Origin: a virus
Direction: 5' to 3' (one strand)
Length of the DNA stretch: 40,896 nucleotides
Virus record (IMG/VR): IMGVR_UViG_3300025324_000004
A program made the translations under genes and the position numbers. Within the stretch, counting starts at the first letter, position 1, and the number at the start of each line of letters is the position of its first letter. A model generated the notes under the pieces. That model saw nothing but the letters and a program-made list of their open reading frames with translations. It searched no databases and was not told the origin of the DNA. Below, in pieces: positions 2,830-25,170 of this stretch.

Positions 2830-3828
2830 ATGGCTACGACAGCATTGCAAACAAGCTATGACACATTCCTTACTGAGACGTTAGATAACGTCGTCAAGCA
2901 AATCGCGGACAACGTAACCACTCGTATTCCGCTCTTGTATTGGATGTATTCTAACGGACGAGTTAGGAAAACGTCAGGCGGCGCCCAAATTCGGCTCCCG
3001 ATCATTAAGGAACTGAATAATACGGCGCAATCCTACAACGACGATGATACGCTCGGAGTAGGAAAGCAAGACCCCGTGGAAGCGGCCTTCTATAACTGGA
3101 AGCAGCACGCTGTTTCTGTTTATGTGACTGGCCGTGAAATGATTCTGAATTCCGGGCCGGAAGGTATTATTGATCTGGTGGCGACATTGACCGAGCAGGC
3201 GGAAACGTCACTGATCGAAGTGCTTGACGATGACTTGCATAGTGCCAATACCGAATCCGACAATGGACTCACCGGGCTTCAGAATCTTGTCTCAACCTCA
3301 GTCTCTACAGGAACGACTGGGAACATCGCCAGAACGAACGCTTATTGGCGGAATATCGCTGATACGGTTTCGACCAACTGGTCAACCGATGGAATCCCAT
3401 CCATGCTTCGTCTCTGGAGACAGGTAGCTCGCGGTGGGGAACATCCTGACATCATCGAGTTCACCGGTTCGATGTTCGAGAATTACGAAAGAGTCCTTTC
3501 GGCAACGATCAGCTACAACTTGCCGCTTGGCTCAGTCGGAACCCCGATGGCGAACAAGACGCTCGGAGATATCGGGATTCAAAACCTGATGTTCAAGGGA
3601 GCGCCGATCATCTACGGCGATAGCGTTCCTGCGAACACGGGTTATTTCCTCAACACGAAATACCTGTGGTGGCAGATTCAGAGGGATCGAGACTTCGTGA
3701 ACACTCCGTTTATTCGGCCATCGAATAAGGATGTTCTCGTTGCTCAGATTCTTCTGATGTCCAACGTCGTTTCTAACCGTTTGGCGGCGCAAGGGGTCTT
3801 GACCGGCTCCGGCGACACCTACAGCTAA
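2830..3828 (+). CDS. Major capsid protein (332 aa)
   Basis: SD AGGAGAG lies upstream. The gene order terL-portal-scaffold-capsid is canonical, and the size fits HK97-fold coat proteins. Confidence 0.7.
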   Translation: MATTALQTSYDTFLTETLDNVVKQIADNVTTRIPLLYWMYSNGRVRKTSGGAQIRLPIIKELNNTAQSYNDDDTLGVGKQDPVEAAFYNWKQHAVSVYVTGREMILNSGPEGIIDLVATLTEQAETSLIEVLDDDLHSANTESDNGLTGLQNLVSTSVSTGTTGNIARTNAYWRNIADTVSTNWSTDGIPSMLRLWRQVARGGEHPDIIEFTGSMFENYERVLSATISYNLPLGSVGTPMANKTLGDIGIQNLMFKGAPIIYGDSVPANTGYFLNTKYLWWQIQRDRDFVNTPFIRPSNKDVLVAQILLMSNVVSNRLAAQGVLTGSGDTYS

Positions 3829-3841
3829 AAAGGAGGCAAAA

Positions 3842-4339
3842 ATGAGAAGGTTTGCATTCGCTTTTGCGTTTCTCTTTGCCTTCGCATTGGCGACTGGTAA
3901 TGCGCTGGCAAACAACCCGAATAACCCTGAGTCTTACCAGGAGCTTATTACCGTCTACAACAACTCCGGGTCTGCTCTCACTTCCGGAACTGTGGTTATT
4001 TGGGATACGACTGGAACTGCAGGCACTACGCTTGGTGGGTACGTTACAACAACTACTTCTGCCGACAGCAACTTGGCGGCAGGCGTTGTTGTGTCTGATT
4101 CCATCCCGGCTGCGGAAAGGGGAGTTATCTGCACCAAAGGCCCCTGCCAAGTCTTGATGGCTAACTCGACTGATGGAACGGCGGCGGCAGGAACGCCTAT
4201 CGGAACCAGTACGGTTTCCGGTCAGGCTGGTAATGCCGCATCGGACGCACCGATTGTTGGGACTTCGCTCCAAACTTCGGCAGTGTCGTCGGACACTCTC
4301 GTTATTTGGGCGTATATCAATCCTCAGTCGATCCCGTAA
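3842..4339 (+). CDS. Head-decoration-like Thr/Ser/Gly/Ala-rich protein with an N-terminal Sec-type signal peptide
   Basis: Strong SD AAAGGAGG. The N-terminus is MRRFAFAFAFLFAFALATGNALA/NN. The body resembles small beta-rich decoration proteins of the DUF2190 type (from memory). It lies immediately after the capsid gene. Confidence 0.5.
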   Translation: MRRFAFAFAFLFAFALATGNALANNPNNPESYQELITVYNNSGSALTSGTVVIWDTTGTAGTTLGGYVTTTTSADSNLAAGVVVSDSIPAAERGVICTKGPCQVLMANSTDGTAAAGTPIGTSTVSGQAGNAASDAPIVGTSLQTSAVSSDTLVIWAYINPQSIP

Positions 4340-4340
4340 C

Positions 4341-4420
4341 GAGGGAGAGTGGCGGTGGGCGGCAATAGGTTGGTGGCTTGAGGGACGTCACTTGTTGCTG
4401 CCCACTCCCTCAACTTTTCG
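4341..4420 (+). terminator. Long imperfect hairpin followed by CTTTTCGG; candidate rho-independent terminator after the capsid/decoration genes
   Basis: GAGGGAG..GTGGGCGGCAA (4341-4365) pairs with TTGCTGCCCAC-TCCCTC (4394-4410), then the T-tract follows. Confidence 0.5.
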
Positions 4421-4433
4421 GTAAAGGCAATAC

Positions 4434-5564
4434 TTGAAAGCTCTTTACGCTTTGTTTGCATTGATGCCGTTTTTCGCGCTTCCGTTTGCGGCTGATCAAG
4501 GCCGAATTCCTAGAATCGGATTGTTCCTTATTTCCGTAGGTGCGGCGAATCTGCTTGAAATGGCGAAAAGGCCGCTGAGAGTCTATTGGAACCGCGATCT
4601 GGCTCTGTTCTTGGGTTGGCTTGGCATCCTGTGGATATACAGGCTGGCTTGGCCCATGATGTGTTCCAAGTCAATGGTTCTCAATTTCTCTGAGGTCATG
4701 GCCTACTTCAATTTCGCGGCTGCCGTTTCCCTTTTCTGGCTTCTGGCGACACGGACTACGGCTAGAGATTGGGCGAGTCTCAATTTCATTATCCAGGTTA
4801 CAACTCTTGCGATAGCCCTGGTCGGAATCGGCCAAAAATTTGGGCTGTCTCCAATAGAGTTAAACACAAAAATAGGCCCGAATCCGGTCGCCGGATTTTT
4901 CGATAACCCGACTATATTTGGGTCATTCGTAGCGCTTGGAGCCTGCTCAATGCTCTCTTTTGAGGGCATTTTAGGCATTTGGGGCTATCTCATCTGCGGG
5001 ATAGCTATCGCCTTAAGCAATAGCGCGTCCGGGCTTACGGTTTGGTTCCTGGCGCTTGCAGTTCATTGGGTTATTGGCTTTGAGTTCAAAAGAGGAATGA
5101 TTCTTGGACTGTCCGCCTTTTTTGCGTGGTGGTTTCTCTCGCTCAGAGACGGTTTTTTCAGCATCGGAGACCGACTTGTCTATTGGGGATGGGCGAAAGA
5201 CTTGTGGCTTGAAAAATTTTGGTTTGGGTGGGGACTAGGAGCCTATCAGTTAATCGGATCGACCGAAGGCAAGCCCGGTTTTTGGAATAACGGGCATTGG
5301 GCTGCTCAGGCGCATAACGATTATTTGCAGCTTGGAGTCGAGGCCGGAATTATCGGACTCGGCCTTCTCTTTTGGTTCATCTATGGGATTTTGAGGAATT
5401 ACTTCAAAGCTCAGAAACCTGAAATATCTCGCGGCTGGCTTTCAGGATTTGTTGGATTTGGGGCGCTTGCTTTTGTTGGATTCCCGGCCCACCTGCCGAT
5501 GACTGCCATGCTTGGAGTCTTTTATTTAGCAGGCCTTGAATCCGTCGGGAAGCAGAACGGTTAG
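4434..5564 (+). CDS. O-antigen ligase / Wzy_C-family polytopic membrane protein (WaaL/Wzy/PglL-like)
   Basis: Multiple hydrophobic segments. It carries the Wzy_C signature AHNDYLQLGVEAGIIGLGLLFWF. The start is TTG with a weak SD, or alternatively ATG at 4464. Confidence 0.75.
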   Translation: MKALYALFALMPFFALPFAADQGRIPRIGLFLISVGAANLLEMAKRPLRVYWNRDLALFLGWLGILWIYRLAWPMMCSKSMVLNFSEVMAYFNFAAAVSLFWLLATRTTARDWASLNFIIQVTTLAIALVGIGQKFGLSPIELNTKIGPNPVAGFFDNPTIFGSFVALGACSMLSFEGILGIWGYLICGIAIALSNSASGLTVWFLALAVHWVIGFEFKRGMILGLSAFFAWWFLSLRDGFFSIGDRLVYWGWAKDLWLEKFWFGWGLGAYQLIGSTEGKPGFWNNGHWAAQAHNDYLQLGVEAGIIGLGLLFWFIYGILRNYFKAQKPEISRGWLSGFVGFGALAFVGFPAHLPMTAMLGVFYLAGLESVGKQNG

Positions 5565-6608: not shown

Positions 6609-6983
6609 ATGGCTGGAAACCAACCCCCGGCAATTATTGGAGACCCTAGAAACGCCGGTCTGCCCACTATTCCAGGCAGGGAAATCGGGCCTGCTTCTGC
6701 GAGAACTGTCACTATCGGCACTGCTCCGACTCAGTTGGTTATCGGGGCAGGCAAATATCATATCGACCTGCATTATGCGACTTCCACAGTTAGGGGTGGG
6801 AATACGGACAACTATCTTAAATACGGCGGGAGCGATTGCGATAGTGGCGGGGCCGGCATTCTCTATCAGGGCCAGACTTTTCAATATCGAAACGTGACCA
6901 GCGACTTTTCGATTTATCTTGCCTCTTTAACAGGCGACATGACATTGGATGTGATCGAATATGAAACCACTCCAGAAACTTAA
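6609..6983 (+). CDS. Hypothetical structural-module protein (124 aa)
   Basis: SD AAAGGGGAG lies upstream. It is in the operon and overlaps the next gene by 23 nt. Confidence 0.5.
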   Translation: MAGNQPPAIIGDPRNAGLPTIPGREIGPASARTVTIGTAPTQLVIGAGKYHIDLHYATSTVRGGNTDNYLKYGGSDCDSGGAGILYQGQTFQYRNVTSDFSIYLASLTGDMTLDVIEYETTPET

Positions 6984-9900
6984 GACTTGGCTTTATAGTT
7001 TATCGGTTTTCTTTTTTGCGACTGCTGTTTGTTTTGCTCAAGTAGTCAATCCTCCTCTTAGAGTGAGAGAGGACGACGGTTCGCCGGATGCTCAACCTGT
7101 GTTCGATGTGATCGTACCGGCAGGGCATCTGCTACAAACAGGAACAACAGTCGAACTATACGACCTTGGGACCGCTTCGGGAGGTTCAACCACATTATCC
7201 GGGTTGAGCGACACCAATATTTCTGCGCTTGCTTCAGGCCATATTCTTATCTATGACGGGACCGACAGTTGGGACAATAAAACAATGTCCGGGGATGTGG
7301 CGATCACTTCCGCAGGCGCAACGACTATTCAAGCAAATTCGGTTGCTCTTACAACAGACACTACTGGGAATTATGTGGCATCGGTCGCAAATGGGACAAG
7401 CATAACCGGCGGGGCTGCCGGTTCTGAGGGGGCTGCGCTTACTTTAGATGTCGCAGACGATTCTATAGACGGGACTGAACTGGATGATTCAATCACTTTA
7501 GACGCCGCGACTCTTGTTTTCAATGATGGGGCAAACACCTTACTTACTATTACTGATGCCGGGACTACGGGGGATCTCACGGCGACAGGGACAATAGAAG
7601 GAGCGACTCTGACCGAAGGCGGTGCAACAGTTTTTAACTCAGGAGAAACTCCAGGCGGTGAACTTGGCGGGACTTGGGCTTCTCCGACGGTAGATGACAC
7701 TTTGGCTGTAACCGATTGGAATCTCACGACTCCGACCATTACGACCCAGTTCACATTAACGGCTCAAGCTACTCCTCTGACCGATGCCGATGGCGAGGTG
7801 GCGTTAGACACAGACGGATGGGGGACCGGGTTTGACGCATATGAGGTATTCAATGGAACGGCGTCAGCTTACCTGGTAGCTACCACGGCCTCAGACGTTC
7901 CTTCAAACGGGCAAGTCCCTCAGTTCAATACGGGTGGTTCGATTACTTGGGAAACGGTCGCGGCTGGGGCGGGAGGAGCTACTACTGAGATACAGTTTAA
8001 TAACGCGGGGGTTTTAGATGGAGATGCGGGCCTGACTTGGGATGATACCAATAAAGTTGTGGGGATAACTTCAACCGTCGATAATTCTCCGATTAATATA
8101 ACTCATACCGAAACTGGAAGCACCACGGCGGCTACCATTGCTGCAAGTGGAGATACGGCGGGAGATGGGTTTATGGGAGCTTCCATCAGTGGAGATACTT
8201 TTTCGAGATTCAGATTTTTATATGACGGAACAATGACTGTGGGGCCTGGGAGTGCAGCAAGAGATGTGAGGCTATATCGTAGTGACACAAAAATTTTTAC
8301 CATTGATGATACGGCTGGTGCAGCGGCTACTTTAGCGGTCATTGGGGAGATTGATATATCAAATGCGGCAGCTGGGGCCGGAACTCTGAAAATTCTAGAG
8401 GACACGGATAACGGAATCAATTATACAACGATAACAGTGCCGGCTTTAGCTGGGAATGTTGCATATACTTTGCCACCTGATGATGGAGATGCGGGTGAAC
8501 AATTACAGACTGACGGATCAGGAATTTTAACATGGGAATCCGCAGGAGGAAGTGGCGACTCGATTACAGTCAACACGACCGCAGCCACAGACGCCAATTT
8601 CCTAGACAATCTTTACATGGACTGGGGGTTGGATACAGTGGCAGCTCCTGACGATATTACGGCAAAATTCAATTATGCGACCACGCTTGCAGGAAACCCC
8701 GCTTTGTTGGTGGATGAGATTGTTTTGTTTGCGGATGCGATCGGGCCAGGATTTTTATCTGAGGGTTCAACAGCAGACACGAATGAACAACTGTACCGAT
8801 TTCCAGATGTGAATGGGGTGGACACTACCAGCTATTTCATGTTGGATGATACGTCAATCACATCAATAGACGATGCCAGTTTGGAGGTGGCTTCTGGTGT
8901 ATTGAGAAGGGCGGCATTGAGTGGGGATATAACGGCCTCGGCAGGAAGTAACACAACTGCGATTGCTGCGGGAGTTATCGTAGATGCAGACATGGCGAAT
9001 GACGCTTTGGACGCGGACAAAGTAGTTGGAGACGCGACAGACGATGATGATTTGGATTTAGCGGCTGGCGGAACAGGGCAATCTTTGGTCGATCCAGGAG
9101 CAGACGGCATATTTATTTGGGACGACTCAGACACGGGCACTGAATGGAATTTTGCTGTGATTGGGTCAGGACTTTCGTTTGATGGGACGACTCTAACGGC
9201 CACTGGAAGCGCGCCGACTTGGGATGTGATCGGTGACGCCTCTGGAAACGGATCAATCGGATTTGGTGATACTGAGCAGACGATAGTTTCCAGCCAAACA
9301 ACGGGTGATGTGAGTGTTTTGAATATCGATTTCAACCAAATTAACGATGCAGCAGCCACAGATGATGTTGACGTTTTCAGATTGGATTTAACATCTGAAA
9401 GCGAGGATGCAGGTGATACGTTAGACGGGTTTGTTATTAACTATGAAGAAGGAACAGCTAACACCATCCTAGACACTGCTATTACTATCAACAATTCCGA
9501 GACTACGGCTTCTACGTTGACTGATGCTATTCTGGTGACTTCCAGTGGGGTAGACGGCGGAGTGGTTGATGCCATTGACGTTTCAGCGGCGAACATCACA
9601 AACGCTATCAACATAGGCGCAAACAATATCATCACGGGCGCAGCAACCATTGCGAGTACGGAATTAGACCGATTAGACGGGCTGGCTTCAGCAATTATAG
9701 AAGATGATGCCATTGATACAACTGCCGAGCTGGAAACTATACAGGGCAGTGTAAATATTTTGCTTGAAACCGAAATAGACGCTTCCTCAGAACTTTTGGC
9801 ATTGATGGATGATGAAACTGGTACCGGCGTTTTAGTTTTTGGGACTTCGCCTACATTCACAACCGGAATTACCGTTCCTGCCGATTCAATTAGTAACTCT

Positions 9901-10461
9901 GAATTGGATGAAGCGGCCACGTTTACTTGGACGGGTGTTCATGATTTCGGCGGAACATCCAGCGTTGAAATGTTAAATGCCGCCTCTGCCACCATTGACG
10001 CAGACGGTGAGTTCTACCTGGAAACGGATTCAAACAGCATCAATATTCAAGCTGGAGACGGTACCACTATCGCTGCGAATCAAGATGTGGCATTGCCTCT
10101 CATCCAGTCTCGCAATGTTACAATTTTAGAGCCTGATGTTATACAGGTTTTAGTAGATCATGTTCGTTTATTCTGTGTCGATACTTATGATTATCCTAGT
10201 GGTATTAAGATCGTGGCTATTAGGTTAGATGCAGATGTTTCAGCAACAACCACTGTTAACATCGAGGAATGGGATCAGGCAGCGGTATCAGGAGCCACGA
10301 TTGCTACGATTGATTCAATCGCTCTCAGCGGGGCTACTGAAACGACTGAAACGACTATCACAGATTCAGACATCGCTACAGGCGCATATGTGATGGCTGA
10401 TTTGGATACGGCCAATATAAACGAGATGGGAATAACGGTGTGGTTCTATGCGAAAGATTAA
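6961..10461 (+). CDS. Large tail-fibre-like protein (1166 aa) with a signal-peptide-like N-terminus
   Basis: Composition is T/G/A/D-rich. It contains the fibre-type motif YTLPPDDGDAGEQLQTDGSGILTWE. The N-terminus is MKPLQKLKTWLYSLSVFFFATAVCFA/QV. Confidence 0.7.
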   Translation: MKPLQKLKTWLYSLSVFFFATAVCFAQVVNPPLRVREDDGSPDAQPVFDVIVPAGHLLQTGTTVELYDLGTASGGSTTLSGLSDTNISALASGHILIYDGTDSWDNKTMSGDVAITSAGATTIQANSVALTTDTTGNYVASVANGTSITGGAAGSEGAALTLDVADDSIDGTELDDSITLDAATLVFNDGANTLLTITDAGTTGDLTATGTIEGATLTEGGATVFNSGETPGGELGGTWASPTVDDTLAVTDWNLTTPTITTQFTLTAQATPLTDADGEVALDTDGWGTGFDAYEVFNGTASAYLVATTASDVPSNGQVPQFNTGGSITWETVAAGAGGATTEIQFNNAGVLDGDAGLTWDDTNKVVGITSTVDNSPINITHTETGSTTAATIAASGDTAGDGFMGASISGDTFSRFRFLYDGTMTVGPGSAARDVRLYRSDTKIFTIDDTAGAAATLAVIGEIDISNAAAGAGTLKILEDTDNGINYTTITVPALAGNVAYTLPPDDGDAGEQLQTDGSGILTWESAGGSGDSITVNTTAATDANFLDNLYMDWGLDTVAAPDDITAKFNYATTLAGNPALLVDEIVLFADAIGPGFLSEGSTADTNEQLYRFPDVNGVDTTSYFMLDDTSITSIDDASLEVASGVLRRAALSGDITASAGSNTTAIAAGVIVDADMANDALDADKVVGDATDDDDLDLAAGGTGQSLVDPGADGIFIWDDSDTGTEWNFAVIGSGLSFDGTTLTATGSAPTWDVIGDASGNGSIGFGDTEQTIVSSQTTGDVSVLNIDFNQINDAAATDDVDVFRLDLTSESEDAGDTLDGFVINYEEGTANTILDTAITINNSETTASTLTDAILVTSSGVDGGVVDAIDVSAANITNAINIGANNIITGAATIASTELDRLDGLASAIIEDDAIDTTAELETIQGSVNILLETEIDASSELLALMDDETGTGVLVFGTSPTFTTGITVPADSISNSELDEAATFTWTGVHDFGGTSSVEMLNAASATIDADGEFYLETDSNSINIQAGDGTTIAANQDVALPLIQSRNVTILEPDVIQVLVDHVRLFCVDTYDYPSGIKIVAIRLDADVSATTTVNIEEWDQAAVSGATIATIDSIALSGATETTETTITDSDIATGAYVMADLDTANINEMGITVWFYAKD

Positions 10462-11698
10462 TTTTGCTTTAGCTTTATTTCTTTTATTCCAATCTGAAGT
10501 TTTTGCCGCTAAACAGGTTTTTGTGGGAGGAGATAGCTCGAACCCTGCTGCAACTGCTGTTAGATATAACGCGCTCCAGGGGCCTTTCGCGTCTTGGGTA
10601 GCTGATATTGATGATGTTGAATCAATTACTCCATCTGCCGGAACAGTCAGCAATTTTAGAATCAAAGTAGATACGACTCCAACCGGAGCAGAGACATGGA
10701 CGTTTGATCTTTTGCTGGATGGAGCAGCAACCGATTTAAGTATAGTTATCTCTGCCGGAGAAACGGATGAACTTGATACAAGCAGCGTTTCTGTAAGCGC
10801 GGGTCAAGAGATTGTGATTCGATCGACTCCATCCGGCACCCCTGATTTAACCAGCGTTCAATGGGCTTTGGATTTTGAGCCGACCACCACAGACTATTTT
10901 TGGATACTCGGTGGATCTGATGGGACAAATGCTCAAACAAATAGAACAATTCCACTAGGCGGGCATGAGGCTATAGACGGTTCTCCTGTTGATGTGGAGA
11001 TTGTGACTCCGGTTTCAGGAACTTTTAGGAATATGTATATCAGTCTGGAAACAGCGGTCGCGGCTGGAGAATCTTGGACTTTTACTCTTAGGAAGGCAGG
11101 AGTAGCGACAGCGTTAACCCTTACAATCACTGAGGGGTTGACTGAAGGGTCGGACACATCTAATACAGTTGCGGCAGCGGCTGGTGAACGATGGGGTATA
11201 TATATTGAGGAAGTAGCTGTTGGCGGTGTTGGGCCTCCTATTTGCGGGATTGTGTTTGATCCAGACACGACAGGTCAATTTTTGATACCAATGATGGACG
11301 ATAGTTCTCTCGCTTTAGGAGAAACTTTTAATGTTCCATCTGGAATTGGATTAGCTTGGACAGCGACAGAGACTAGTTTTGATCAACTCGCTAATGCGTT
11401 CACCGCTAAAATGATTTATTGCAGTATGACAGTGGCTCCTACTGCTGGAAATAGCCACATTTTAACGTTGAGAACTAACATGACAACTGACACTGCATTG
11501 GCGGTAACTGTAAATGATACGGAAACAAGTGATTCAGTGACAACAGATGTATCTATAAGTGCCGCTGATTTGTTGACACTCAAGCATACAGTCAGCGGCA
11601 CTCCGGCATCAAGCGTCGAGAATCGGATTACCCTTGTTGGAATTGTTCCCGCAGCTGGCGGCGGCCCTAAAAAAGGTGCTGTCATGGTGGTCAATTAG
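10448..11698 (+). CDS. Secreted-type structural-module protein (416 aa)
   Basis: Overlaps the upstream gene by 14 nt. The N-terminus is MRKINFALALFLLFQSEVFA/AK. The body is T/S/A-rich and beta-like. Confidence 0.6.
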   Translation: MRKINFALALFLLFQSEVFAAKQVFVGGDSSNPAATAVRYNALQGPFASWVADIDDVESITPSAGTVSNFRIKVDTTPTGAETWTFDLLLDGAATDLSIVISAGETDELDTSSVSVSAGQEIVIRSTPSGTPDLTSVQWALDFEPTTTDYFWILGGSDGTNAQTNRTIPLGGHEAIDGSPVDVEIVTPVSGTFRNMYISLETAVAAGESWTFTLRKAGVATALTLTITEGLTEGSDTSNTVAAAAGERWGIYIEEVAVGGVGPPICGIVFDPDTTGQFLIPMMDDSSLALGETFNVPSGIGLAWTATETSFDQLANAFTAKMIYCSMTVAPTAGNSHILTLRTNMTTDTALAVTVNDTETSDSVTTDVSISAADLLTLKHTVSGTPASSVENRITLVGIVPAAGGGPKKGAVMVVN

Positions 11699-11706
11699 GA
11701 GATGAA

Positions 11707-12168
11707 ATGATAAATTTATTGGTTTTAATTGTTTCATTAATGCTGAGCACATCAGCTTTAGCCGCTATTCAATCAATTACAATTGATACTTCCACTTGGG
11801 ATCAGCGGCAAAAGAATCTTTTGACCGCAGCTGTCATCAAAGAATCTTATGCGATCAACAACACCATCAAACCACCTATTTCAGTCAATTCGAATACTGG
11901 AGAAGTTGTCTTCCAAGACCCGCCGTTTAATGTTTCTGTTTTGACGACACAGTTAATTTTTAATGCTGTAAATCAAATCATAATTGATTCCACTCAAACG
12001 CCAGACCAAATCAAGGCAGATGAAGTCATAGCTGCTTATAATTTTCTTGAGAAGGTGTTAGCTGCCTACACACAAGTCTTGAAAGCGAAAAACCCCACTT
12101 TGATTGTTTCCAATATGAAGCAAGCAGTGATTGACCAAATGAAAATAAACGAAGGGCTGACTCCGTAA
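11707..12168 (+). CDS. Hypothetical protein with signal peptide (153 aa)
   Basis: SD AGGAG lies upstream. The N-terminus is MINLLVLIVSLMLSTSALA/AI. Confidence 0.55.
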   Translation: MINLLVLIVSLMLSTSALAAIQSITIDTSTWDQRQKNLLTAAVIKESYAINNTIKPPISVNSNTGEVVFQDPPFNVSVLTTQLIFNAVNQIIIDSTQTPDQIKADEVIAAYNFLEKVLAAYTQVLKAKNPTLIVSNMKQAVIDQMKINEGLTP

Positions 12169-13239: not shown

Positions 13240-14370
13240 ATGATTCCTACATTGAACGACTTGAGAACAAGTATCCAAAAGAAGATGCAAGACACCTCTT
13301 CCGGGCCGCCGATTGACTACTGGATCAATCAGGGCAAGGACTTGATTGAGGCGTCTTGGCCTTGGCCTTTTCTTAGGCGCAGAGGGACGATTGTGACCGT
13401 TGCCCCTGTGACAGCAGGCGACGCCGATGTGACGAATGGCTCGAAGAACGTCTCTTCGGATAACGGCAGCACTTCATGGGCAGCCGGAGTAGTTGGGAGG
13501 AAGTTCAGGATAGACGGAGAGAACGCTTATTACGATATCGCTACCCGTTCTTCGGCTACGGCTCTTATCCTAGAGCAGGTTTACCAAGGCTCTACTGCTA
13601 CTGATAGCGCCTATAGCATCTTCCAAAACGAATACAAGCTGCCTCCTGACATGATCGCGCCAAAAAGCCTTGTAACCATGAATAAGCCTGTAAAGTTGAC
13701 ATGGGTTACTCTCGGCCTGTTCGATGAGAAATTCCCATCTCCCGAAGATACGGGCGAGCCGGATTATTCGGTTCTCCTGGGGCGAGAGAATGATATCTAT
13801 GAGACAGGGACGATCTCGGCAACTGTCAATACAAGCATCATGACTGGGAGCGGCACTTCTTGGCTGAGTGTCGAGGGGCTTGCGAGAGGGTCAAAGATCA
13901 CGGTTGGAGAAAATGTTTACATGATTAAATCGGTCGATTCGGACACTCAAATCACCGTGTATCAAAATATCGCAGCGACCATCTCATCCGGAACTTCTTA
14001 CACCATCCATCTTGATAACTGGATTGTCCTTCTGCATGACATCCCTGATGCGGTTTATAACCTCCCGTTTAGGTATCAGGGGCATACTCCGCCGATGGTA
14101 GATGATCAGGACTTGCTGATTTGCTGGCCTGAAAGCATGGCTGATTTGCTTGAACTCTACGGAGATATAAAGGCTTCTGATTTCAACCATGACTACAACA
14201 GGATGGATAGAAGCGAGAAACGATTTGCTCTGAGACTTTTGGAAGCGCAGAGAGATCATGGGAAAGGCGCGCTTGAGCAAGTAACTGTTTTGAGGTCAAC
14301 CGACGATCTGAAATTAGGCAGAAGGGCAGTTCGGTTCCCTTCTGAATATCCTCTACCTTGGTCAAGATAA
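13240..14370 (+). CDS. Virion structural protein, function unassigned (376 aa)
   Basis: SD AAGGAAGG lies upstream. It is in the tail-module position and has no signal peptide. Confidence 0.6.
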   Translation: MIPTLNDLRTSIQKKMQDTSSGPPIDYWINQGKDLIEASWPWPFLRRRGTIVTVAPVTAGDADVTNGSKNVSSDNGSTSWAAGVVGRKFRIDGENAYYDIATRSSATALILEQVYQGSTATDSAYSIFQNEYKLPPDMIAPKSLVTMNKPVKLTWVTLGLFDEKFPSPEDTGEPDYSVLLGRENDIYETGTISATVNTSIMTGSGTSWLSVEGLARGSKITVGENVYMIKSVDSDTQITVYQNIAATISSGTSYTIHLDNWIVLLHDIPDAVYNLPFRYQGHTPPMVDDQDLLICWPESMADLLELYGDIKASDFNHDYNRMDRSEKRFALRLLEAQRDHGKGALEQVTVLRSTDDLKLGRRAVRFPSEYPLPWSR

Positions 14371-15971
14371 TGAGCAAAGCTCGAAAGAGATTTCTAGCAT
14401 TAGGCGTAGCCTATTTCGGCTTAGCAGTTTTTCTGATGGCTGGAGTTACGTTTGCTTCCACGCCGAAGGCTAATAAATATGAGTTCTTTAATAATGCGGG
14501 CGGTCTCAACTCGAAGCTGTCTTCGATCTCGATTGACGATGATGAGGCAAGCGACATAAATAATATGTCGTTTTCTCGCGGAGGCTCTATCCAGACGAGA
14601 AGCGGCTACATCAAGTACAACTCGACTGCAATCACCGGCACTCCGTCAATCACAGGGCTTTTTTACAACCGATTCACCGATGGGACCAGGATGCTTCTGG
14701 CCACGACCTCCAACTCCAAGCTCTACAAATCGGAGATGGATGGAACGATGGATGACGTTACAGGTTCATTCAGCCTTCCGTCCGGTCAGGATTCCAGAAC
14801 ATCGTTCACCGTCGGCAGAGACATGGTGTTTATCGGGTTCAGCGATACGGCTCTTAGCCCGATTTGGGTTTCATCGACTGGTGCGGTTGTCTCTCTGGCC
14901 GGTAATCCTCCGGAAGCCAAATACAACAAATTCAACAAGAACGTCCTGTTTTGGGCCAACGGCAACCAAGATGGCACTCTCTATAAATCAAGAGTTTGGT
15001 ATACGCCACTTGGCGATCTAGGCTCTTCAAAGAATGTCGAGAGATATCCAGACGAGTATTTCTTTGATGTCGCTTGGGATGACGGAACGGAAATAACCGC
15101 TCTTTTTACTATCCTGGACACTATTTATATCGGGAAAGATACCTCTATTTGGAGGCTCAGTGGCAGCGACCATGACAGTTTCGTGCTTGAAAGGATGATT
15201 GTAGACACAGGACCGATAGCTCATGAAGTTGTTCAGGTCATTGATAACGTGGCCTATTTCATGGATTCGAAAAACAGGATTGTCTCCTATGATGGAGGCA
15301 TCAAGGTCGTCGATATATCCGACAGAATCGAGACGACTTTAAATGCGCTCAATGAGAACAGAAATATTTATTCGGTCAGTTCGAGATATAACGACGATTA
15401 CCAGATTTCGGTAACTGATGCAGGAGGTTCAACACATGATACGATCTTTTATTACGACACTTTTCAGGACGCTTGGACCATTTACAAAGGTATAGCCGCT
15501 AATGCCATGGCGATTGCGTCAACGGTAAACGATCCGGAAGTTTGGTATACGGGCAATTATGCCGGGAGAATCTATGAACAGGATTCAGGTACAAACGACG
15601 ATGGGACGGCTATTGATTGGTATTACACATCAAAACAATATAGATTCCCTGATGTTTGGGGCAAAAAAACTTTCAGGGCTGTTGATATCACATACAACAC
15701 GGAATCCAATTACAACATCAATGTAGAGCATCGAACAGATTTCGCTTCAACTGGGGTGGCGGTAACTCTTAATCTGAATCCTGGTGGGTCACTGTGGGAC
15801 TCAGGAGTATATGGAACAGCGACATATGGTGGGATTGAAGTGGCAGACGCAGACATTAACGTCAATAATAGTGGGGAGTTTTTCTCCTTAAAAATATGGA
15901 ACGACCAACTAAATCAACCAGCTACTATTCTAGGCTGGAAAATATATGTCGAGCCAATAGAGCGAAGATAG
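14370..15971 (+). CDS. Tail-module protein with signal-peptide-like N-terminus (533 aa from ATG 14370; the track starts at TTG 14358)
   Basis: TAATG overlap with the upstream stop. The N-terminus is MSKARKRFLALGVAYFGLAVFLMAGVTFA/ST. Confidence 0.6.
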   Translation: MSKARKRFLALGVAYFGLAVFLMAGVTFASTPKANKYEFFNNAGGLNSKLSSISIDDDEASDINNMSFSRGGSIQTRSGYIKYNSTAITGTPSITGLFYNRFTDGTRMLLATTSNSKLYKSEMDGTMDDVTGSFSLPSGQDSRTSFTVGRDMVFIGFSDTALSPIWVSSTGAVVSLAGNPPEAKYNKFNKNVLFWANGNQDGTLYKSRVWYTPLGDLGSSKNVERYPDEYFFDVAWDDGTEITALFTILDTIYIGKDTSIWRLSGSDHDSFVLERMIVDTGPIAHEVVQVIDNVAYFMDSKNRIVSYDGGIKVVDISDRIETTLNALNENRNIYSVSSRYNDDYQISVTDAGGSTHDTIFYYDTFQDAWTIYKGIAANAMAIASTVNDPEVWYTGNYAGRIYEQDSGTNDDGTAIDWYYTSKQYRFPDVWGKKTFRAVDITYNTESNYNINVEHRTDFASTGVAVTLNLNPGGSLWDSGVYGTATYGGIEVADADINVNNSGEFFSLKIWNDQLNQPATILGWKIYVEPIERR

Positions 15972-16246
15972 TTTGGGGCGTCTTCTGTTTCCTGTGGTGT
16001 GCAGGATACACCCATGCGGCTAAGATTACGCAGCCTCCGCCTTTGCCCGACGAGCCTGTAGCTGAACAACTTTATCTGAAACAGCTTTATGATAACTTCA
16101 ATAATTTGGAGACCGTCACATACGACCCCAACGGGAACCGGGACGGAGTTCTTGGAGATGTGGTTTACTATCAATCAGGGGCAAACAGATTTCTCAAGGT
16201 TTGCGATGGAGGCACGACATGGTACGAAGTCTCTTTAAGTCTGTAA
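15896..16246 (+). CDS. Small fibre-module protein; start uncertain
   Basis: The only canonical start (ATG 15896) overlaps the upstream gene by 76 nt and lacks an SD. A signal-like segment KIVWGVFCFLWCAGYTHA/AK begins exactly where the upstream gene ends. Confidence 0.4.
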   Translation: MERPTKSTSYYSRLENICRANRAKIVWGVFCFLWCAGYTHAAKITQPPPLPDEPVAEQLYLKQLYDNFNNLETVTYDPNGNRDGVLGDVVYYQSGANRFLKVCDGGTTWYEVSLSL

Positions 16247-17478
16247 TTCCAGCTTCGGTATTAGCCTTTTCGGTATTAGCCTTTTCGGTATTAGTATGGG
16301 CAGTGCCCGACACGCTTATGACTATTGCCCCTTCCGCTCAGTCCGGGACGACTATCACGGCGGCAGATGAAAACGATAGAAATAACGACGTTTCAACGGT
16401 TTATAATGGGCATTCTCATGCCGATATCTCATCAACAAGCGCCAATACGTTTACTATCGGAAACGGAGCTGCAGGGAATAAGGATTATGCGATAAGTGAT
16501 GGCACAAATAGCGCGGCAGTCAGATGGGATGGGACAAATACGCGATGGGAAGTTACCAATGACGGCTCGACTTATTTGAGTCTTGTTACAACGACCGGCA
16601 CGACCACAACATTCAATACATTACCGAATTCGGCTTCTGCGAACACTATTTTGTATTCAGACGGAAATTCATGGAATGCAGGAACAGACAGGGTTGCTGA
16701 TTTAGCTACAGGCGCAGGAGAGATCCTTTATTCGACTGGTGTGGATGCTTTGGCTGTATTAGCTGCTGGAACATCCGGGCAAGTTCTTCAAAGCAATGGA
16801 GCCGCCGCTCCATCATGGGTTGATTCAAGTGATCCTACGGATTACGTTACTTTCTATGAAGAATTCCTTACTTCAGATGAGGCTTCTACCGGCGCGGCGA
16901 GAATGATCCGGTCTCAATATGCTTGGCGTGTAAGAGGGAAGGCTATAACCGGCACTTATGATGATAATGGCCTTTGGGAGATTGATGGTGACGCGGCAGC
17001 TGATGTAGGAGAGATGTTCCTATCGAATGGGGGAACCGCTACAACAGATATCGCTCTTCCATTCAAAGCGTCCCTTAATCCGACCGTCATTATAAATTGG
17101 AGAAATGATAATGGTTCTGCGAGTGGGGCAAATTGCTATTTAGGTCTTTTCAGCGATTTTACAAGCGCAGCGGCCCCTACAAACGGCGTTTATTTTAATT
17201 GGGATGGTAATTCTAGAGATATCAACTTGATTACTAATGCAGCCGGGATCACCACAACTGATACGCTTGTTAATTCTGACACAGCAACATCCCACACATT
17301 TAAATTGGTGTTTACCGACACTACCAACATAGCTCTTACTGTTGATGGAGGTTCAGTTATAAACATCACGGCAAATATTCCAAGCGACGATTTGGGGATT
17401 GCCTTTACCGGGCCAAACAGCACCGCTAATCGCGGAGTTATCATCGACTACATCTATGTAAAGCAAAATAGGAGTTAG
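16219..17478 (+). CDS. Tail-fibre-like protein with signal peptide (419 aa from ATG 16219)
   Basis: GGAGG lies 6 nt upstream of ATG 16219. The N-terminus is MVRSLFKSVIPASVLAFSVLAFSVLVWA/VP. The body is T/G/A/N-rich. Confidence 0.6.
   Translation: MVRSLFKSVIPASVLAFSVLAFSVLVWAVPDTLMTIAPSAQSGTTITAADENDRNNDVSTVYNGHSHADISSTSANTFTIGNGAAGNKDYAISDGTNSAAVRWDGTNTRWEVTNDGSTYLSLVTTTGTTTTFNTLPNSASANTILYSDGNSWNAGTDRVADLATGAGEILYSTGVDALAVLAAGTSGQVLQSNGAAAPSWVDSSDPTDYVTFYEEFLTSDEASTGAARMIRSQYAWRVRGKAITGTYDDNGLWEIDGDAAADVGEMFLSNGGTATTDIALPFKASLNPTVIINWRNDNGSASGANCYLGLFSDFTSAAAPTNGVYFNWDGNSRDINLITNAAGITTTDTLVNSDTATSHTFKLVFTDTTNIALTVDGGSVINITANIPSDDLGIAFTGPNSTANRGVIIDYIYVKQNRS
16254..16294. repeat. 15-bp tandem repeat (ttcggtattagcctt) x about 3 inside the signal-peptide coding region
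   Basis: Read directly. ttcggtattag occurs at 16254, 16269 and 16284. It encodes SVLAF-SVLAF-SVLV. Confidence 0.9.
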
Positions 17479-17487
17479 GAGGCTACT

Positions 17488-18411
17488 ATGGCTTTTATGG
17501 CGGCAATTATGCCTGCGATAATCTCGGCTATGAGTTCTTTAGTCAGCGGGAGAGACAGAAAAAACAAGGAAGAATCGGCTCAAGAGAGGCAGACCGATAT
17601 TGCCAATCAGGAACTTGCACGGCAACTGAGCTATGGTGATCAGCTTTACAACGTCTACAAGCCGAACAAGAAAGACTTGGATATTCTTTCTTCTCTCGAA
17701 TCTCTATTTAAGATGCCTGGCGAGAAGGAGTACGCTTCCAAAGGACCTCTGTCGAAAGAATTACTTTCTTCTCTATTATCGGCTTTGACGACTTCCGAAT
17801 ATGAGCCGACTCTTGACGACCAAATAGAACTGGCTAGGCAATCGATCAATGCTAGGGAAAATCAGTCAGGGTTCTTTTCAAGCGGCAGAAGATTCGAGGA
17901 TGTGGGTCGTGCGGCTTCCGAACTGGCGGTGAGAAGCGCAGAAGGGAAACTGGCTGAAAGGCAGCAGGCCAGGTCGAATGCTTTCCAGCTTGCCAATTAC
18001 ATCAATCAGATGGATCAAAATTCCAGACAGAGCTTTTTGGATTTCCAGAACAATCTCAGAAGCAGGGAAATGGCCGGAGCAACAGGAAGGGCTGAACTCG
18101 CTTCAGGCGGTTCGAGAACAAAAGCAGGCATTGAAGCCGGTGCACTGGACAGGCTTTATGGAAGAGCTGATCAGGCCGCGCAAAGAACCGGGGGGCTGGA
18201 AGAATTGGCGACCAATTTTCTTATGAATGCGCCTTTCTTTTCAGGAGGACAAGTTCCTATTAGCCCAGGTGGAATTGAAGATTACGTTTCAGGAGACGCT
18301 CCATTACCAACCGCTCCAAGGCGATCATTGGCCGATATTTTCGGTATGAGGAGTTCTGGCATACCAAGTCCTCAAGAAGAATTGGCCCTTTCCAGAAACA
18401 GGAGGTATTGA
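17488..18411 (+). CDS. Internal-virion/ejection-like protein (307 aa)
   Basis: SD AGGAGG lies upstream. It has a hydrophobic N-terminus and a Q/R/E-rich helical body, and it follows the fibre genes. Confidence 0.5.
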   Translation: MAFMAAIMPAIISAMSSLVSGRDRKNKEESAQERQTDIANQELARQLSYGDQLYNVYKPNKKDLDILSSLESLFKMPGEKEYASKGPLSKELLSSLLSALTTSEYEPTLDDQIELARQSINARENQSGFFSSGRRFEDVGRAASELAVRSAEGKLAERQQARSNAFQLANYINQMDQNSRQSFLDFQNNLRSREMAGATGRAELASGGSRTKAGIEAGALDRLYGRADQAAQRTGGLEELATNFLMNAPFFSGGQVPISPGGIEDYVSGDAPLPTAPRRSLADIFGMRSSGIPSPQEELALSRNRRY

Positions 18412-21966: not shown

Positions 21967-22090
21967 GCTTGGCCCGATTTACCGCTATCCAAAAGGCTCA
22001 AACATCAATCCGTATGTGACTGAGGAGGGGACTCCAAGGGAGTCTGCGGTCATGAGTTGGGATAGGGCCGTTTACCTTATTGGGCGCTGA
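21878..22090 (+). CDS. Possible lipoprotein (o-spanin-like), starting inside the previous gene in another frame (70 aa)
   Basis: The N-terminus is MSLQMLICVLVLTTAS-C. The overlapped architecture resembles Rz/Rz1. Confidence 0.3.
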   Translation: MSLQMLICVLVLTTASCGWMRKSPVLNATELGPIYRYPKGSNINPYVTEEGTPRESAVMSWDRAVYLIGR

Positions 22091-22580
22091 TAACAAGATC
22101 AGGTTCCTTCTCTATCTTCATGGTTCGCCCAACAAGCCTGGCGGGGAATTCCCTGATTCGGCTTGAGCCAAGCCAATCCTCATTGTTGATTTCCTGAGAG
22201 ATCCCCGGCCTGAAATAGTCCATGCTTTCCCAGGTATACCCCCAATAAATGGCCGGGTTATCCATCTTGACCCACTTACCTTTTTCGAGAATCCAGCTTT
22301 TGGACACTTCTATTTTCTCGAACTTTTTATGCAGCTTGATTTCTTCCAGCAAATCCCACGGTAAATCCCACCGCACATAAGCTCTCCAGTGTGTTGTGCT
22401 GTCTTGGCCGGCGGCTATAAGTGGGCTTTCGATCTTGGCTAGGTTATCTTTTCTCATGCCTGAAAGTATTTGGTATCCAACATAGAGAGCAGGCAGCAAG
22501 AACGTAAAGAAAGCCACTATCAAGAAATCAATAATGTTGATTTTCCCGAACAGCCGCCCTTCCGAATCAATGAGTTTCAT
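22077..22580 (-). CDS. Membrane-anchored protein resembling the DUF4330 type (167 aa from the internal ATG)
   Basis: The N-terminus MKLIDSEGRLFGKINIIDFLIVAFF matches my memory of DUF4330. It is the last gene of the minus-strand glycan cluster. Confidence 0.45.
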   Translation of the reverse strand: MKLIDSEGRLFGKINIIDFLIVAFFTFLLPALYVGYQILSGMRKDNLAKIESPLIAAGQDSTTHWRAYVRWDLPWDLLEEIKLHKKFEKIEVSKSWILEKGKWVKMDNPAIYWGYTWESMDYFRPGISQEINNEDWLGSSRIREFPARLVGRTMKIEKEPDLVISAQ

Positions 22581-23751
22581 ATTTATCCAGCAAATCCGTA
22601 TACCAAGCTTGTCTTCTTTGCATGTTTGTCTCGATGTCATGGAAAGTCTTAGCGATTTTTAGGGCGGAGATACTTACTTGAATTGCATAATCAGGATAGT
22701 CAAGCAAATCTCTAATGCTCTCTGCCGCGCCTTGAATGTCTCCTTCTGAAAGCAGAAGGCCGCCCCATTTTGTCTTTTCGATCAGTTCATTGTGCCAATC
22801 AACGTCATAAGCGACGATTGGTCTCCCTCCAAGCGCGGCCTCAACCAATGAGTTCCCGGCCATGAGACAGATGTTTATATCTGCCAATTTGCGCCAAGTG
22901 GGTATCTCCGCATAAGGCCGCCACCCATAGAAAATGACGTTCTGGCCGATAGTAGAGTCCGAAAGCCTCTTATATTCCGGCCCATCTCCGATAAAGAGAA
23001 GAGCGGTCTTGGGATGGGTTTGTCTGACTCTGCGGTGGATTTCAACGATATCGTCCACATAGTTCTCTTTGCTTAACCTACCGATGCTGACAAGCAGCTT
23101 GCAATCTGGAATCTCTTTCTGAATCCTCTCAACGGCAAACGCCACTATCGGCAAGTTCGGCTCGTTATATTCCTCTTGCGCCACCTGGAATCTGTCCAGA
23201 AGCAGGTTTTTTGCACCATCCTTTTCGGCTTCCTTCAGTAGATTCATGGACCTTGCCATAACCCCATGGGCGCGGCTAAGCACAAATCGCCTCAACTTCT
23301 TTGCCAGCCATCTTGAGCCAAGGATTTTTGGGAATAGATAAGTCGGGCCAACAAGTCGGTATCTCAAATCTTCAGGTGTTCTGAGGCTGACCATAAACGG
23401 CACATTGGCTTTCTTGGATGCCAGCCAAGCAATAAATCCGCCGACATAAGGGTCGTGAACCTTAATTAAATTCCTGTCTCCTGGGGAGACGCTCCATCGG
23501 ATAGTTGTATACAAATTGATTAAATATCTCAGTTTTCCTTTCCATCCATTGCCGCATTTTTTTCTGCCTAATTCAGTGACGAAATGTTTACCATTTACCC
23601 ATTGTTCATGATTGTATAAAACGGGGAAATGAATCGAAGTAATTCTTTCCCAGTAGCCGCCGTCTGACCGTTCTTCCAGTTTTTCTTCCATTTTCCTGTC
23701 TTTTAAGGCGGTAAGAGATGTCGGTACGATGCAAATCAAGTTATTTCCCAT
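22567..23751 (-). CDS. Glycosyltransferase, GT1/GT4 (Glycos_transf_1) family (394 aa from ATG 23751)
   Basis: The C-terminal motif region is LLFIGDGPEYKRL ... NSLVEAALGGRPIVAYD. SD AAGGA lies upstream of the internal ATG. Confidence 0.8.
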   Translation of the reverse strand: MGNNLICIVPTSLTALKDRKMEEKLEERSDGGYWERITSIHFPVLYNHEQWVNGKHFVTELGRKKCGNGWKGKLRYLINLYTTIRWSVSPGDRNLIKVHDPYVGGFIAWLASKKANVPFMVSLRTPEDLRYRLVGPTYLFPKILGSRWLAKKLRRFVLSRAHGVMARSMNLLKEAEKDGAKNLLLDRFQVAQEEYNEPNLPIVAFAVERIQKEIPDCKLLVSIGRLSKENYVDDIVEIHRRVRQTHPKTALLFIGDGPEYKRLSDSTIGQNVIFYGWRPYAEIPTWRKLADINICLMAGNSLVEAALGGRPIVAYDVDWHNELIEKTKWGGLLLSEGDIQGAAESIRDLLDYPDYAIQVSISALKIAKTFHDIETNMQRRQAWYTDLLDKYETH

Positions 23752-24076
23752 CTTCAATCCTTTTGAGCGACTCCTGTATTTTTTGTATATCTCTCTTGAG
23801 AGCATTCCAATCATCGAACTTGGCATAATTGAACTTGAGTTCCCGACCATAGAAAATTTTCCTGTCTATCCAACCAAAGATGAGGAATGTGGACACCGTA
23901 GCAAGATAGAGAAGGACAAACATCTTTTTCAGGTCGAATGCGACCAGAAGGTCTTGAGATTGGAGGTTGGACAGGAAGATATATAACAGCATCCCCGAAT
24001 TGAGCAAGCTGGCCCAAGACGCGCTTCTACTCAATAGGATTTTAGCGAATACCAGACTATCTAGTATTCTGTTCAT
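23741..24076 (-). CDS. Small 2-3-TM membrane protein with a charged C-terminal helix (111 aa)
   Basis: ATGA overlap with the upstream gene stop at 24073-24076. Confidence 0.5.
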   Translation of the reverse strand: MNRILDSLVFAKILLSRSASWASLLNSGMLLYIFLSNLQSQDLLVAFDLKKMFVLLYLATVSTFLIFGWIDRKIFYGRELKFNYAKFDDWNALKRDIQKIQESLKRIEDGK

Positions 24077-25170
24077 TTGAATTGAGGGTACTTGTCCAGA
24101 GAGTACTCCAAATAGCCGGGCGGTATCTTCTTGATTCTGACCTCCTGCGACCACGGCCACCTTGCTTTTCCGCTGGCTTCAAGAGCTGTAAAGAATGGAA
24201 CGTAATAGTCTGTCAGACTGTTCGGCCAATACTGGTAATAGTTCCCGGCCTCGCTAAAGAACATGGGTGAGTCACCGCACTCCTTATCGCGCCATTCCAA
24301 GGAGTCAAAGAAAACAAACTGTCTTGGATGCCACCAGGGATATTTCACCGTGAAGTTATTTCTCATTCTGAGCGCAATCTTCCAATAGCGGTCAAAATAT
24401 TTGGCCTTGTTTGGATTCTCTACTTCCTGTGAATAGAAATTGACAACCTTAATTGAATCCAGCTTATTATCCAAAACCGCCCTATGCAGACCTATGGCCG
24501 ACATTATCTGGCCTCCTGCCGTGTAATAGACGCCAAGATCAGGGTCGAGAACACCCCAAATGTTGTCCTCATCCAAATATTCGGTCACAACATGGCCGTT
24601 CTTGTTCTTGTCTTGGAGAATCACCACCCTAGCTGGGATGCCTACAGATACCAGACATTGCATGAGCGTGTAGGCCGATTCGCCGCAGAGGAAAGTTTCC
24701 CCCTTTTCCGCTCTTCTCAGGACATGGAGCGCATCGAAATTCCCGAAATTGGTCGGTTCTTTCGGCGAGTTGTGGCCCCACTGTTCATGCACCCACTTTC
24801 CCAGAGCGATTGGGTTGTCTTTGAATCGGTCCAGTTTGAACTCATCTCTTAACTGTCTAAGGTTTCGTTCAGGGTCTTTTTCGGCAAGAAAGAAAGGCTC
24901 CTTGAATAGAAATGATGCCGGGTCAAGAAGCCTCTTTAGACTGATGCTGCCTGTCAAAAGAACAGTTAGCCCCGCCCAAAAGATTAGAACTCCGAGTGCC
25001 CCCTGCCATATCCATCTTGTTTGCTGTCTACACTCCTCTTCTGTGCGAACTATCTTGATATACACGGCATCTAAGGCATTCCTGAAATCGAAATCAAGCA
25101 AAAGAGTAATCGTCCTTGCAATCATTAGAACGCCTACAGTTATGAGAGAAAAGCAAATTAGTATAGTCAC
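24073..25170 (-). CDS. Membrane protein with a transglutaminase-like Cys-His-Asp core (365 aa)
   Basis: The motif is FLCGESAYTLMQCLVSVGIPARVV...GHVVTEY...WGVLDPD. It has N-terminal TM segments and a GTG start. Confidence 0.6.
   Translation of the reverse strand: MTILICFSLITVGVLMIARTITLLLDFDFRNALDAVYIKIVRTEEECRQQTRWIWQGALGVLIFWAGLTVLLTGSISLKRLLDPASFLFKEPFFLAEKDPERNLRQLRDEFKLDRFKDNPIALGKWVHEQWGHNSPKEPTNFGNFDALHVLRRAEKGETFLCGESAYTLMQCLVSVGIPARVVILQDKNKNGHVVTEYLDEDNIWGVLDPDLGVYYTAGGQIMSAIGLHRAVLDNKLDSIKVVNFYSQEVENPNKAKYFDRYWKIALRMRNNFTVKYPWWHPRQFVFFDSLEWRDKECGDSPMFFSEAGNYYQYWPNSLTDYYVPFFTALEASGKARWPWSQEVRIKKIPPGYLEYSLDKYPQFK

Follow-up and report, generated by a model that had tools for sequence, protein, structure and literature searches.

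A Wzy_C-family membrane enzyme paired with an exported decoration-fold protein in the structural module of uncultured tailed phages: a candidate phage O-oligosaccharyltransferase

The dedicated O-oligosaccharyltransferases (O-OTases) TfpO, PglS and TfpM are encoded immediately downstream of the protein that they modify, require a conserved histidine and use glycans linked to undecaprenyl pyrophosphate (Und-PP) at the periplasmic face (PMC9829042). Within the same superfamily, WaaL, as represented by the enzyme of Cupriavidus metallidurans (PDB 7TPG), has lipid A-core as its acceptor, and phage-encoded Wzy_C membrane proteins have been described in the P. aeruginosa phage D3 (Wzy-beta) and in VarioGold (VG_p25). 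In these temperate phages they are morons that lie by integrase or lysis genes, have the opposite orientation or a regulation of their own, and act on O-antigen (PMC4815439, PMC9658991). Here, a Wzy_C-family gene from the IMG/VR virus record IMGVR_UViG_3300025324_000004 (the window, analysed over its full length of 40,896 nucleotides) is described, which lies in the structural module directly after the gene of an exported protein with a capsid cement/decoration fold (Table 1). An initial annotation of the DNA had raised periplasmic O-glycosylation of the phage's own exported surface proteins as one hypothesis. The comparative data suggest the same, leaving the hypothesis strengthened and unproven, and the enzyme may be a phage O-OTase acting on exported virion proteins, a reading that is given a probability of roughly 0.45.

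Like PilA-TfpO (PilO), ComP-PglS and pilin-TfpM, the phage pair consists of a polytopic Wzy_C enzyme with a conserved His, encoded downstream of the gene of a Sec-exported protein. Because an exported protein gene followed by a Wzy_C gene is the layout of TfpO, PglS and TfpM with their pilins, O-glycosylation of the decoration protein is the best-supported reading of the locus. The acceptor in those systems is a type IV pilin, whereas the phage partner combines a capsid cement/decoration fold with a signal peptide of type I (AXA), unlike a prepilin leader. Further, the phage pair resides inside a head-tail structural operon, the enzyme is shorter (~376 amino acids, aa) and no curated OTase model was passed. 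The phage enzyme shares with WaaL (7TPG) the 12 transmembrane helices, the N-in/C-in topology and an aligned Arg/His loop, though at 17% sequence identity, and its gene is not part of a lipopolysaccharide (LPS) core (waa/rfa) cluster; where WaaL acts on lipid A-core, the genetic context of the phage gene points to a protein partner.

The locus also departs from what has been described in phages. Unlike the D3 and VarioGold morons, to which it has no detectable similarity, the window gene belongs to the core of the late operon and co-diverges with the capsid gene, and the phage that carries it is apparently not temperate. Mycobacteriophage virions are glycosylated on the capsid/tail surface (Freeman et al. 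2023, cited in PMC11256854) and, so far as that citation describes the system, soluble cytoplasmic glycosyltransferases act at the assembly site, in contrast to the export and en-bloc periplasmic transfer proposed here. Known cement and decoration proteins (Pam3, T1/Sf11/TW1, lambda gpD and the phi29 gp8.5 base) possess the same fold as the phage partner but bind capsids in the cytoplasm. In the literature, subscription journals aside, no precedent was found for signal-peptide virion proteins, phage O-OTases or Wzy_C genes in phage structural modules; a paper on a Leptospira 'wzyC' was rejected as a precedent, as it concerns a host gene.

The window is a tailed phage. A 99-bp exact direct repeat at both ends (1-99 and 40798-40896) indicates a complete genome of ~40.8 kb, circular or terminally redundant, and the repeat itself may reflect a circularly permuted genome or an assembly overlap. 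The same genome is present as 40,862-bp assemblies in at least two ENA metagenomes. No integrase was found among the open reading frames (ORFs) of the genome, with every ORF of at least 180 aa accounted for, no repressor was found among the window proteins and a tRNA scan of the window returned none.

The product of the gene matches PF04932 (Wzy_C) over residues 185-312 (E 5.2e-10, 39.7 bits; gathering threshold (GA) 31.7), as does a homologue in one syntenic contig (L028) above the same cutoff (39.0 bits), and carries the signature motif AHNDYLQLGVEAGIIGLGLLFWF at residues 293-315, so that the family assignment and the signature reported in the initial annotation were both upheld. The TTG start proposed there is less secure, with the family alignment favouring the longer, 376-aa form while near-identical cluster members are annotated as 366 aa from the alternative ATG at 4464; the TTG form is preferred and the start is uncertain by ten codons. 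No match to the protein was returned from PHROGs, NCBIfam, PADLOC or the PDB (phmmer), nor by tblastn against 50,697 deposited phages (INPHARED), D3 included. A word-indexed homologue search recovered two weak relatives only, while HMMER, run exhaustively against 1.84 billion representatives, recovered 349 relatives at E ≤ 1e-3 and 11 at E ≤ 1e-10, with many of the best relatives being full length (375-390 aa).

An AlphaFold2 (AF2) model of the enzyme built with 29 relatives in the alignment was confident (predicted local distance difference test (pLDDT) 88, predicted template modelling score (pTM) 0.89) and has ~12 transmembrane helices, and the sole significant Foldseek match in the PDB was WaaL (7tpg_B; TM-scores 0.62/0.59, probability 1.0). 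A profile of the clade instead matched best to 9RMK chain A, a 610-aa protein deposited as 'Oligosaccharyltransferase' with ~200 extra C-terminal residues (E 8e-14, 54.5 bits), in a nearly full-length alignment (profile positions 9-359 versus residues 27-407), whereas the match to WaaL (E 1e-11, 47.3 bits) spanned the Wzy_C core only. In both WaaL and 9RMK, the conserved Arg and His are matched by R247 (…GDRLVYW…) and H294 (…AHNDYLQ…) of the phage family, which are invariant in the 30-sequence alignment and at 16 of 16 phage loci; across those 16 loci the invariant positions are Q134, R247, G265, G267, G269, H294 and G305. In the predicted topology, the loop that bears the Arg and His (residues 237-295) lies on the periplasmic side, given that the loops at 45-53, 216-222 and 324-336 are rich in Lys/Arg. 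Invariance of the catalytic-loop Arg and His and of a G-x-G-x-G motif at a mean identity of ~24% is the pattern expected of a working enzyme.

Judged by profile and predicted fold, the enzyme is a bona fide member of the WaaL/Wzy/PglL superfamily, in which it forms a new branch, deeply divergent and set in a genetic and biological context that is also new, and it is probably active as a transferase. Among the 30 clade members, TfpM was the NCBIfam model matched most often, with weak matches in three (best E 2.5e-4), while the RfaL and Wzy models were matched by none. Together with the margin of ~7 bits in favour of 9RMK, this leans weakly to an O-OTase over WaaL. A role as a holin or in lysis was also considered for the enzyme and rejected, its conserved residues being those of a transferase active site.

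The upstream partner had been described in the initial annotation as a secreted, Thr/Ser/Ala-rich, decoration-like protein, and each element of that description was borne out. The protein (T 13%, S 10%, A 15%) has a predicted signal peptide at residues 1-23 (DNA 3842-3910) with cleavage at MRRFAFAFAFLFAFALATGNALA/NN (ALA/NN; here and below a slash marks the cleavage site), and its gene directly follows that of the major capsid protein (MCP), the usual position for such proteins. The top 50 PDB matches listed by Foldseek for its AF2 model (pLDDT 83) were all phage or viral capsid/head entries, almost always at a probability of 1.0, and include proteins of cyanophage Pam3, HFTV1, Sf11, T1, TW1 and Borrelia BB1 as well as the phi29 gp8.5 base and lambda gpD. 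At the level of sequence, the match to Phage_cement_2 is weak (residues 38-94; E 0.0034, 18.2 bits, below the GA of 24) and this model was matched at E ≤ 0.05 in 3 of 12 relatives.

The decoration family comprises at least 100 clusters at 90% identity (136-200 aa), several of them from contigs of 37-43 kb, and a Sec-type N-terminus (MKK…, a hydrophobic core and an AXA site) is present in 100 of 100 homologues. A capsid-decoration family with a predicted cleavable Sec signal is unusual. In one large subfamily, a conserved Cys pair follows the predicted cleavage site (…ALQCKxGNxGSDECW…), which is consistent with a location outside the cytoplasm, in an oxidising environment. Of 100 homologues, 31 have an NP[S/T] tail at the C-terminus, the other subfamily ends in a beta-strand (DAYITVV), and an N-N/D-S motif is invariant among close relatives only and is not a PglL-type site.

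More than 15 other phage contigs (L003/4, L005, L007-10, L012-14, L016, L024, L028-30 and L111-120) have a homologue of the Wzy_C protein, at only 22-27% identity, in the same slot, after the MCP and ~165-aa protein genes and ahead of the adaptor. The full gene order, consisting of the terminase large subunit (TerL), portal, Zn-ribbon, scaffold, MCP, ~165-190 aa protein, Wzy_C, coiled-coil, adaptor, ~520-620 aa protein and small proteins, is found in L003/L004, L007-L010, L012-L014, L028-L030 and the ten IMG/VR loci L111-L120. BLASTP identities to the window are 25-42% for MCP, 33-38% for TerL and ~30% for the portal, alongside the 22-27% of Wzy_C. Distant relatives of the window MCP occur in podoviruses, among them Mx8/Mx9 and Brucella Tb-like phages, and the adaptor that forms the downstream boundary of the slot is 35-40% identical to its counterparts in L003, L010, L013 and L028. 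Distance matrices of MCP and Wzy_C across 16 loci are correlated (Spearman 0.69, Mantel p ≤ 0.0005), as are those of the decoration protein and Wzy_C (r 0.63), and the GC content around the Wzy_C gene is unremarkable.

The ten IMG/VR loci were retrieved by means of the decoration-protein motif alone, and a Wzy_C ORF lies within ~300 bp downstream in 9 of the 9 testable loci, the tenth ending at a contig edge and being excluded from the count. Every Wzy_C locus examined has a signal-peptide protein of ~160-210 aa encoded immediately or one or two genes upstream, and this pairing extends to different phage backbones (L015, L019, L020, L023 and L024). At one locus (L007, 3293-3511) a 72-aa predicted lipoprotein (…LFLIGC/STQ lipobox) is encoded between the decoration and Wzy_C genes. 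Against 185,579 species genomes, the decoration motif returned no match and no prophage copy was found; the Wzy_C motif returned cellular partial matches only (Acidobacteriota, Verrucomicrobiota, Atribacterota and others), with the sole full-length match being a domain of a 1895-aa cellular protein. By their distribution, the Wzy_C and decoration genes form a fixed two-gene cassette across a clade of uncultured phages. The initial annotation had regarded the Wzy_C gene as a moron inserted between head and tail genes, which the shared slot in divergent contigs, the co-divergence with MCP and the ordinary GC content contradict; combined with the failure to find an integrase or a promoter-like site of its own, these same features mark the gene as a late core gene of the structural module that, on sequence grounds, is old and has been inherited vertically.

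Between the two genes of the cassette, the sequence 4341-4411 folds into a hairpin of ~26 pairs (-41.1 kcal/mol, z = -3.05 versus 200 dinucleotide shuffles), which a simple terminator scan did not list, the stem and loop being beyond the limits of the scan. The long hairpin of the initial annotation is thus present, while the T-tract assigned to it is weak (CAACTTTTCGG, with a T run of four bases). A GC-rich hairpin, unrelated in sequence, directly follows the decoration stop codon in at least seven other loci (L003, L007, L010, L013, L023, L024 and L028). Conservation in position suggests attenuation, with abundant MCP and decoration protein versus a low-abundance enzyme, and the hairpin probably serves to terminate in part, or to attenuate, transcription from the MCP/decoration genes into the enzyme gene. 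No promoter-like site was found on the + strand between 3500 and 6000, in a scan that assumes sigma-70 promoters.

Export signals are not confined to the decoration protein. Six further structural-module proteins in the window, most of them Thr/Ser/Ala-rich, have a signal peptide and an AXA-type site (the products starting at 6961, 10448, 11707, 14358, 15896 and 16201), in agreement with the exported, Thr-rich proteins that had been predicted downstream of the enzyme. The largest of the six, the fibre-like candidate acceptor, has no Pfam, PHROG or PDB match. Homologues of these proteins in other clade members mostly bear signal peptides, including those of the 537-aa tail protein (p537) in L003, L007, L010, L013 and L028. 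For p537 and the adaptor, PDB sequence searches returned nothing useful, and a PHROG label of 'amidase' on p537 is a family annotation that could not be confirmed. In L017/L018 (11390-13170), the homologues of p537 (28% identity over 521 aa) and of the 116-aa protein start at the mature N-terminus, without a signal peptide; as the mature parts align though the signal is absent, the export signal behaves as an add-on that is gained or lost by lineage. None of the structural-module proteins of MW202489, an Mx8-like relative without Wzy_C, bears a signal peptide.

Under the proposed mechanism, the MCP and decoration genes would be strongly transcribed late in infection, with the hairpin attenuating read-through into the enzyme gene, and the decoration protein would be exported to the periplasm together with several Thr/Ser-rich fibre and tail proteins. 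The enzyme would be embedded in the inner membrane of the host, its Arg247/His294 site exposed on the periplasmic side, and, depending on an Und-PP-linked glycan, would transfer this lipid-linked glycan, of host origin or phage-modified, onto Ser/Thr residues of the exported proteins. The modified proteins would be added to capsids already filled in the cytoplasm, after the holin has breached the inner membrane. The protein nature of the acceptor, the identity of the glycan and attachment after lysis are what we infer. In model phages, addition in vitro is possible for both decoration proteins and fibres. A broader proposal of two-compartment virion assembly, in which decoration, fibre-like and some tail proteins would pass through Sec, undergo periplasmic O-glycosylation and possibly form disulfides before joining the DNA-filled particle at lysis, is tentative and on balance doubtful.

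Several points weigh against protein O-glycosylation. Since capsids are filled in the cytoplasm, exported components could attach only after the inner membrane is breached, and this problem of topology is answered only by assuming attachment after membrane disruption; a signal peptide on p537 in most lineages is likewise hard to square with an early role in tail assembly. The preference for an O-OTase is small (54.5 versus 47.3 bits and weak TfpM matches in 3 of 30 members), the window enzyme itself matches no NCBIfam model, and a search of the decoration homologues for a conserved acceptor motif found none common to the family. Additionally, the evidence is computational throughout, signal peptides were called with a home-made hydropathy/AXA heuristic and not SignalP, and the sole basis for a diderm host is an outer-membrane beta-barrel gene and the short signal peptides.

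The enzyme may instead be a WaaL/Wzy-like lipid or polysaccharide ligase or polymerase that remodels the host envelope late in infection, where it might cap or alter LPS or capsule against re-adsorption of progeny to debris, or weaken the envelope, with the exported decoration-like protein being a separate periplasmic factor and not a substrate. WaaL gave the sole significant fold match and aligns over the Wzy_C core with the catalytic Arg and His kept, and whether the acceptor is of the WaaL or the PglL class is not readable from sequence in this superfamily. Late-expressed receptor-masking proteins, such as Llp of T5, are also known in lytic phages. This role is nonetheless rather unlikely, as it leaves unexplained the strict pairing with a signal-peptide, decoration-fold protein across unrelated backbones, the co-divergence of the two genes and the finding that signal peptides have accumulated on proteins of the structural module in Wzy_C-carrying phages alone, and no RfaL or Wzy model of NCBIfam was matched. 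A protein without transferase activity, whether through loss or from the outset, that docks the decoration protein at the membrane, chaperones it or aids its export, or else is a transporter like IctB, would accord with the great divergence of the family (11 library matches below E 1e-10) and with weak matches of 2 of 30 members to the IctB model, but the residues that have stayed invariant are precisely the catalytic-loop Arg and His and the G-x-G-x-G motif, making this improbable. Phage-borne Wzy_C genes that serve O-antigen seroconversion or superinfection exclusion in a lysogen exist, as in D3 Wzy-beta and VarioGold p25 (PMC4815439, PMC9658991), and a hairpin does precede the gene here, but such a moron, the conventional alternative in the initial annotation, is very hard to reconcile with a gene that lies in the same orientation within a late structural operon without a promoter-like site of its own, in a genome without a detected integrase or repressor, that shows conserved synteny and co-divergence with MCP instead of a patchy distribution, and that has ordinary GC content, no match in the deposited phages, D3 included, and no prophage copy in the species genomes.

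Table 1. Positions of the cassette, the structural module and a glycosyltransferase gene in the window (a slash marks the predicted signal-peptide cleavage site)
Feature	Position	Strand	Remarks
Portal, C-terminal part	100-1281		Matches portals of syntenic loci
Scaffold-like protein	1850-2704
Major capsid protein (MCP)	2830-3828	+	Heads MCP/decoration/Wzy_C block; phrog_9953 major head protein, E 1.7e-51
Capsid cement/decoration-fold protein	3842-4339	+	165 aa; proposed acceptor/partner of the Wzy_C enzyme
GC-rich hairpin, then short T run	4341-4420	+	Stem 4341-4411
Wzy_C-family (WaaL/PglL-like) polytopic inner-membrane enzyme	4434-5564	+	376 aa; 12 predicted transmembrane helices
Predicted periplasmic loop of enzyme, residues 237-295	5142-5318	+	Arg247 (5172-5174), His294 (5313-5315)
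Fibre-like protein, Thr/Ala/Gly-rich	6961-10461	+	1166 aa; T 14%; signal peptide …ATAVCFA/QV; candidate acceptor
Thr-rich protein	10448-11698	+	416 aa; signal peptide …SEVFA/AK
153-aa protein	11707-12168	+	Signal peptide …TSALA/AI
Head-tail adaptor (SU10_adaptor-like)	13240-14370	+	PF24175, E 2.4e-5; without signal peptide
Conserved post-adaptor tail protein p537	14358-15971	+	537 aa; signal peptide …GVTFA/ST
Conserved protein	15896-16246	+	116 aa; signal-peptide-like N-terminus
Thr/Ser/Ala-rich protein	16201-17478	+	425 aa; signal peptide …VLVWA/VP
GT4-family cytoplasmic glycosyltransferase	22567-23850	-	Glycos_transf_1, E 4.3e-16
Terminase large subunit (TerL)	38052-39962

Beyond the structural module, several genes could bear on a glycan. 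The GT4-family glycosyltransferase possibly supplies or modifies a lipid-linked glycan, though its link to the cassette is conjectural, and it belongs to a cluster (22077-25170, - strand) with DUF4330 and a transglutaminase-like protein that has an N-terminal hydrophobic segment. The cluster may feed or modify a pathway for a glycan; neither a flippase nor an initiating transferase was identified. In the L028 contig (JAODGZ010000781.1, 42 kb), the structural module has an APS kinase gene (E 1e-15) directly after the gene of a signal-peptide, 1050-aa fibre protein, in a region (15872-17613) that also holds a Sulfotransfer_2-like ORF (E 7e-4, below the cutoff) and a weak GT2, a neighbourhood that hints at a sulfated glycan or protein. 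The early, leftward region of the window encodes an outer-membrane beta-barrel protein of 200 aa (30044-30646, - strand; OMP_b-brl, E 2.6e-8), which has a signal peptide and possibly a role in receptor masking.

Several other elements of the genome were recorded. An 11-mer, GAGCGAAGCTC, which contains a very stable GCGAAGC mini-hairpin, occurs in 10 copies versus 0.03 expected, with five in the scaffold-MCP intergenic region (2729-2805), where they form perfect tandem units of 16 bp, two as singles upstream of TerL (37550-37560 and 37812-37822) and three in tandem on the opposite (-) strand inside the 5' end of TerL (38121-38161); these repeats may be a late-regulatory or packaging signal. A Type-P5 twister ribozyme (35850-35901, - strand; 54.7 bits versus a gathering score of 37.6, E 8e-9, full model length) is located in the stretch that separates the leftward early genes from the rightward ones. 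Within a DUF6745 gene (27639-28808), the 12-bp unit TCAACCTGCTGC is repeated ~19 times (28354-28581, - strand), with higher-order periods of 48, 60 and 72, and codes for a tetrapeptide repeat. Two paralogous DUF7222 proteins (34073-34483 and 35411-35827, both on the - strand) have near-identical N-termini (…VLGEAQEFEKPLIRAVYRRIG… and …VLNEAREFEQPIIRAVYRRLG…).

If the enzyme does glycosylate exported virion proteins, it would represent the first phage-encoded system for en-bloc protein O-glycosylation, and a highly divergent family of compact O-OTases (~376 aa) with a natural acceptor that is small and well folded. Enzyme/acceptor pairs of this kind are of direct interest for bioconjugate vaccines, which rely on PglL, PglS, TfpM and their sequons. 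For the biology of environmental phages, it would explain a host-derived glycan coat, with a role in stability, camouflage or adhesion. The assumption that phage Wzy_C genes serve lysogenic conversion would need amending, as would the textbook view that the virions of tailed phages are built entirely in the cytoplasm. Even with a lipid acceptor, the presence of Sec signal peptides throughout a capsid-decoration family (100 of 100 homologues) would remain an anomaly, and one that is experimentally tractable.

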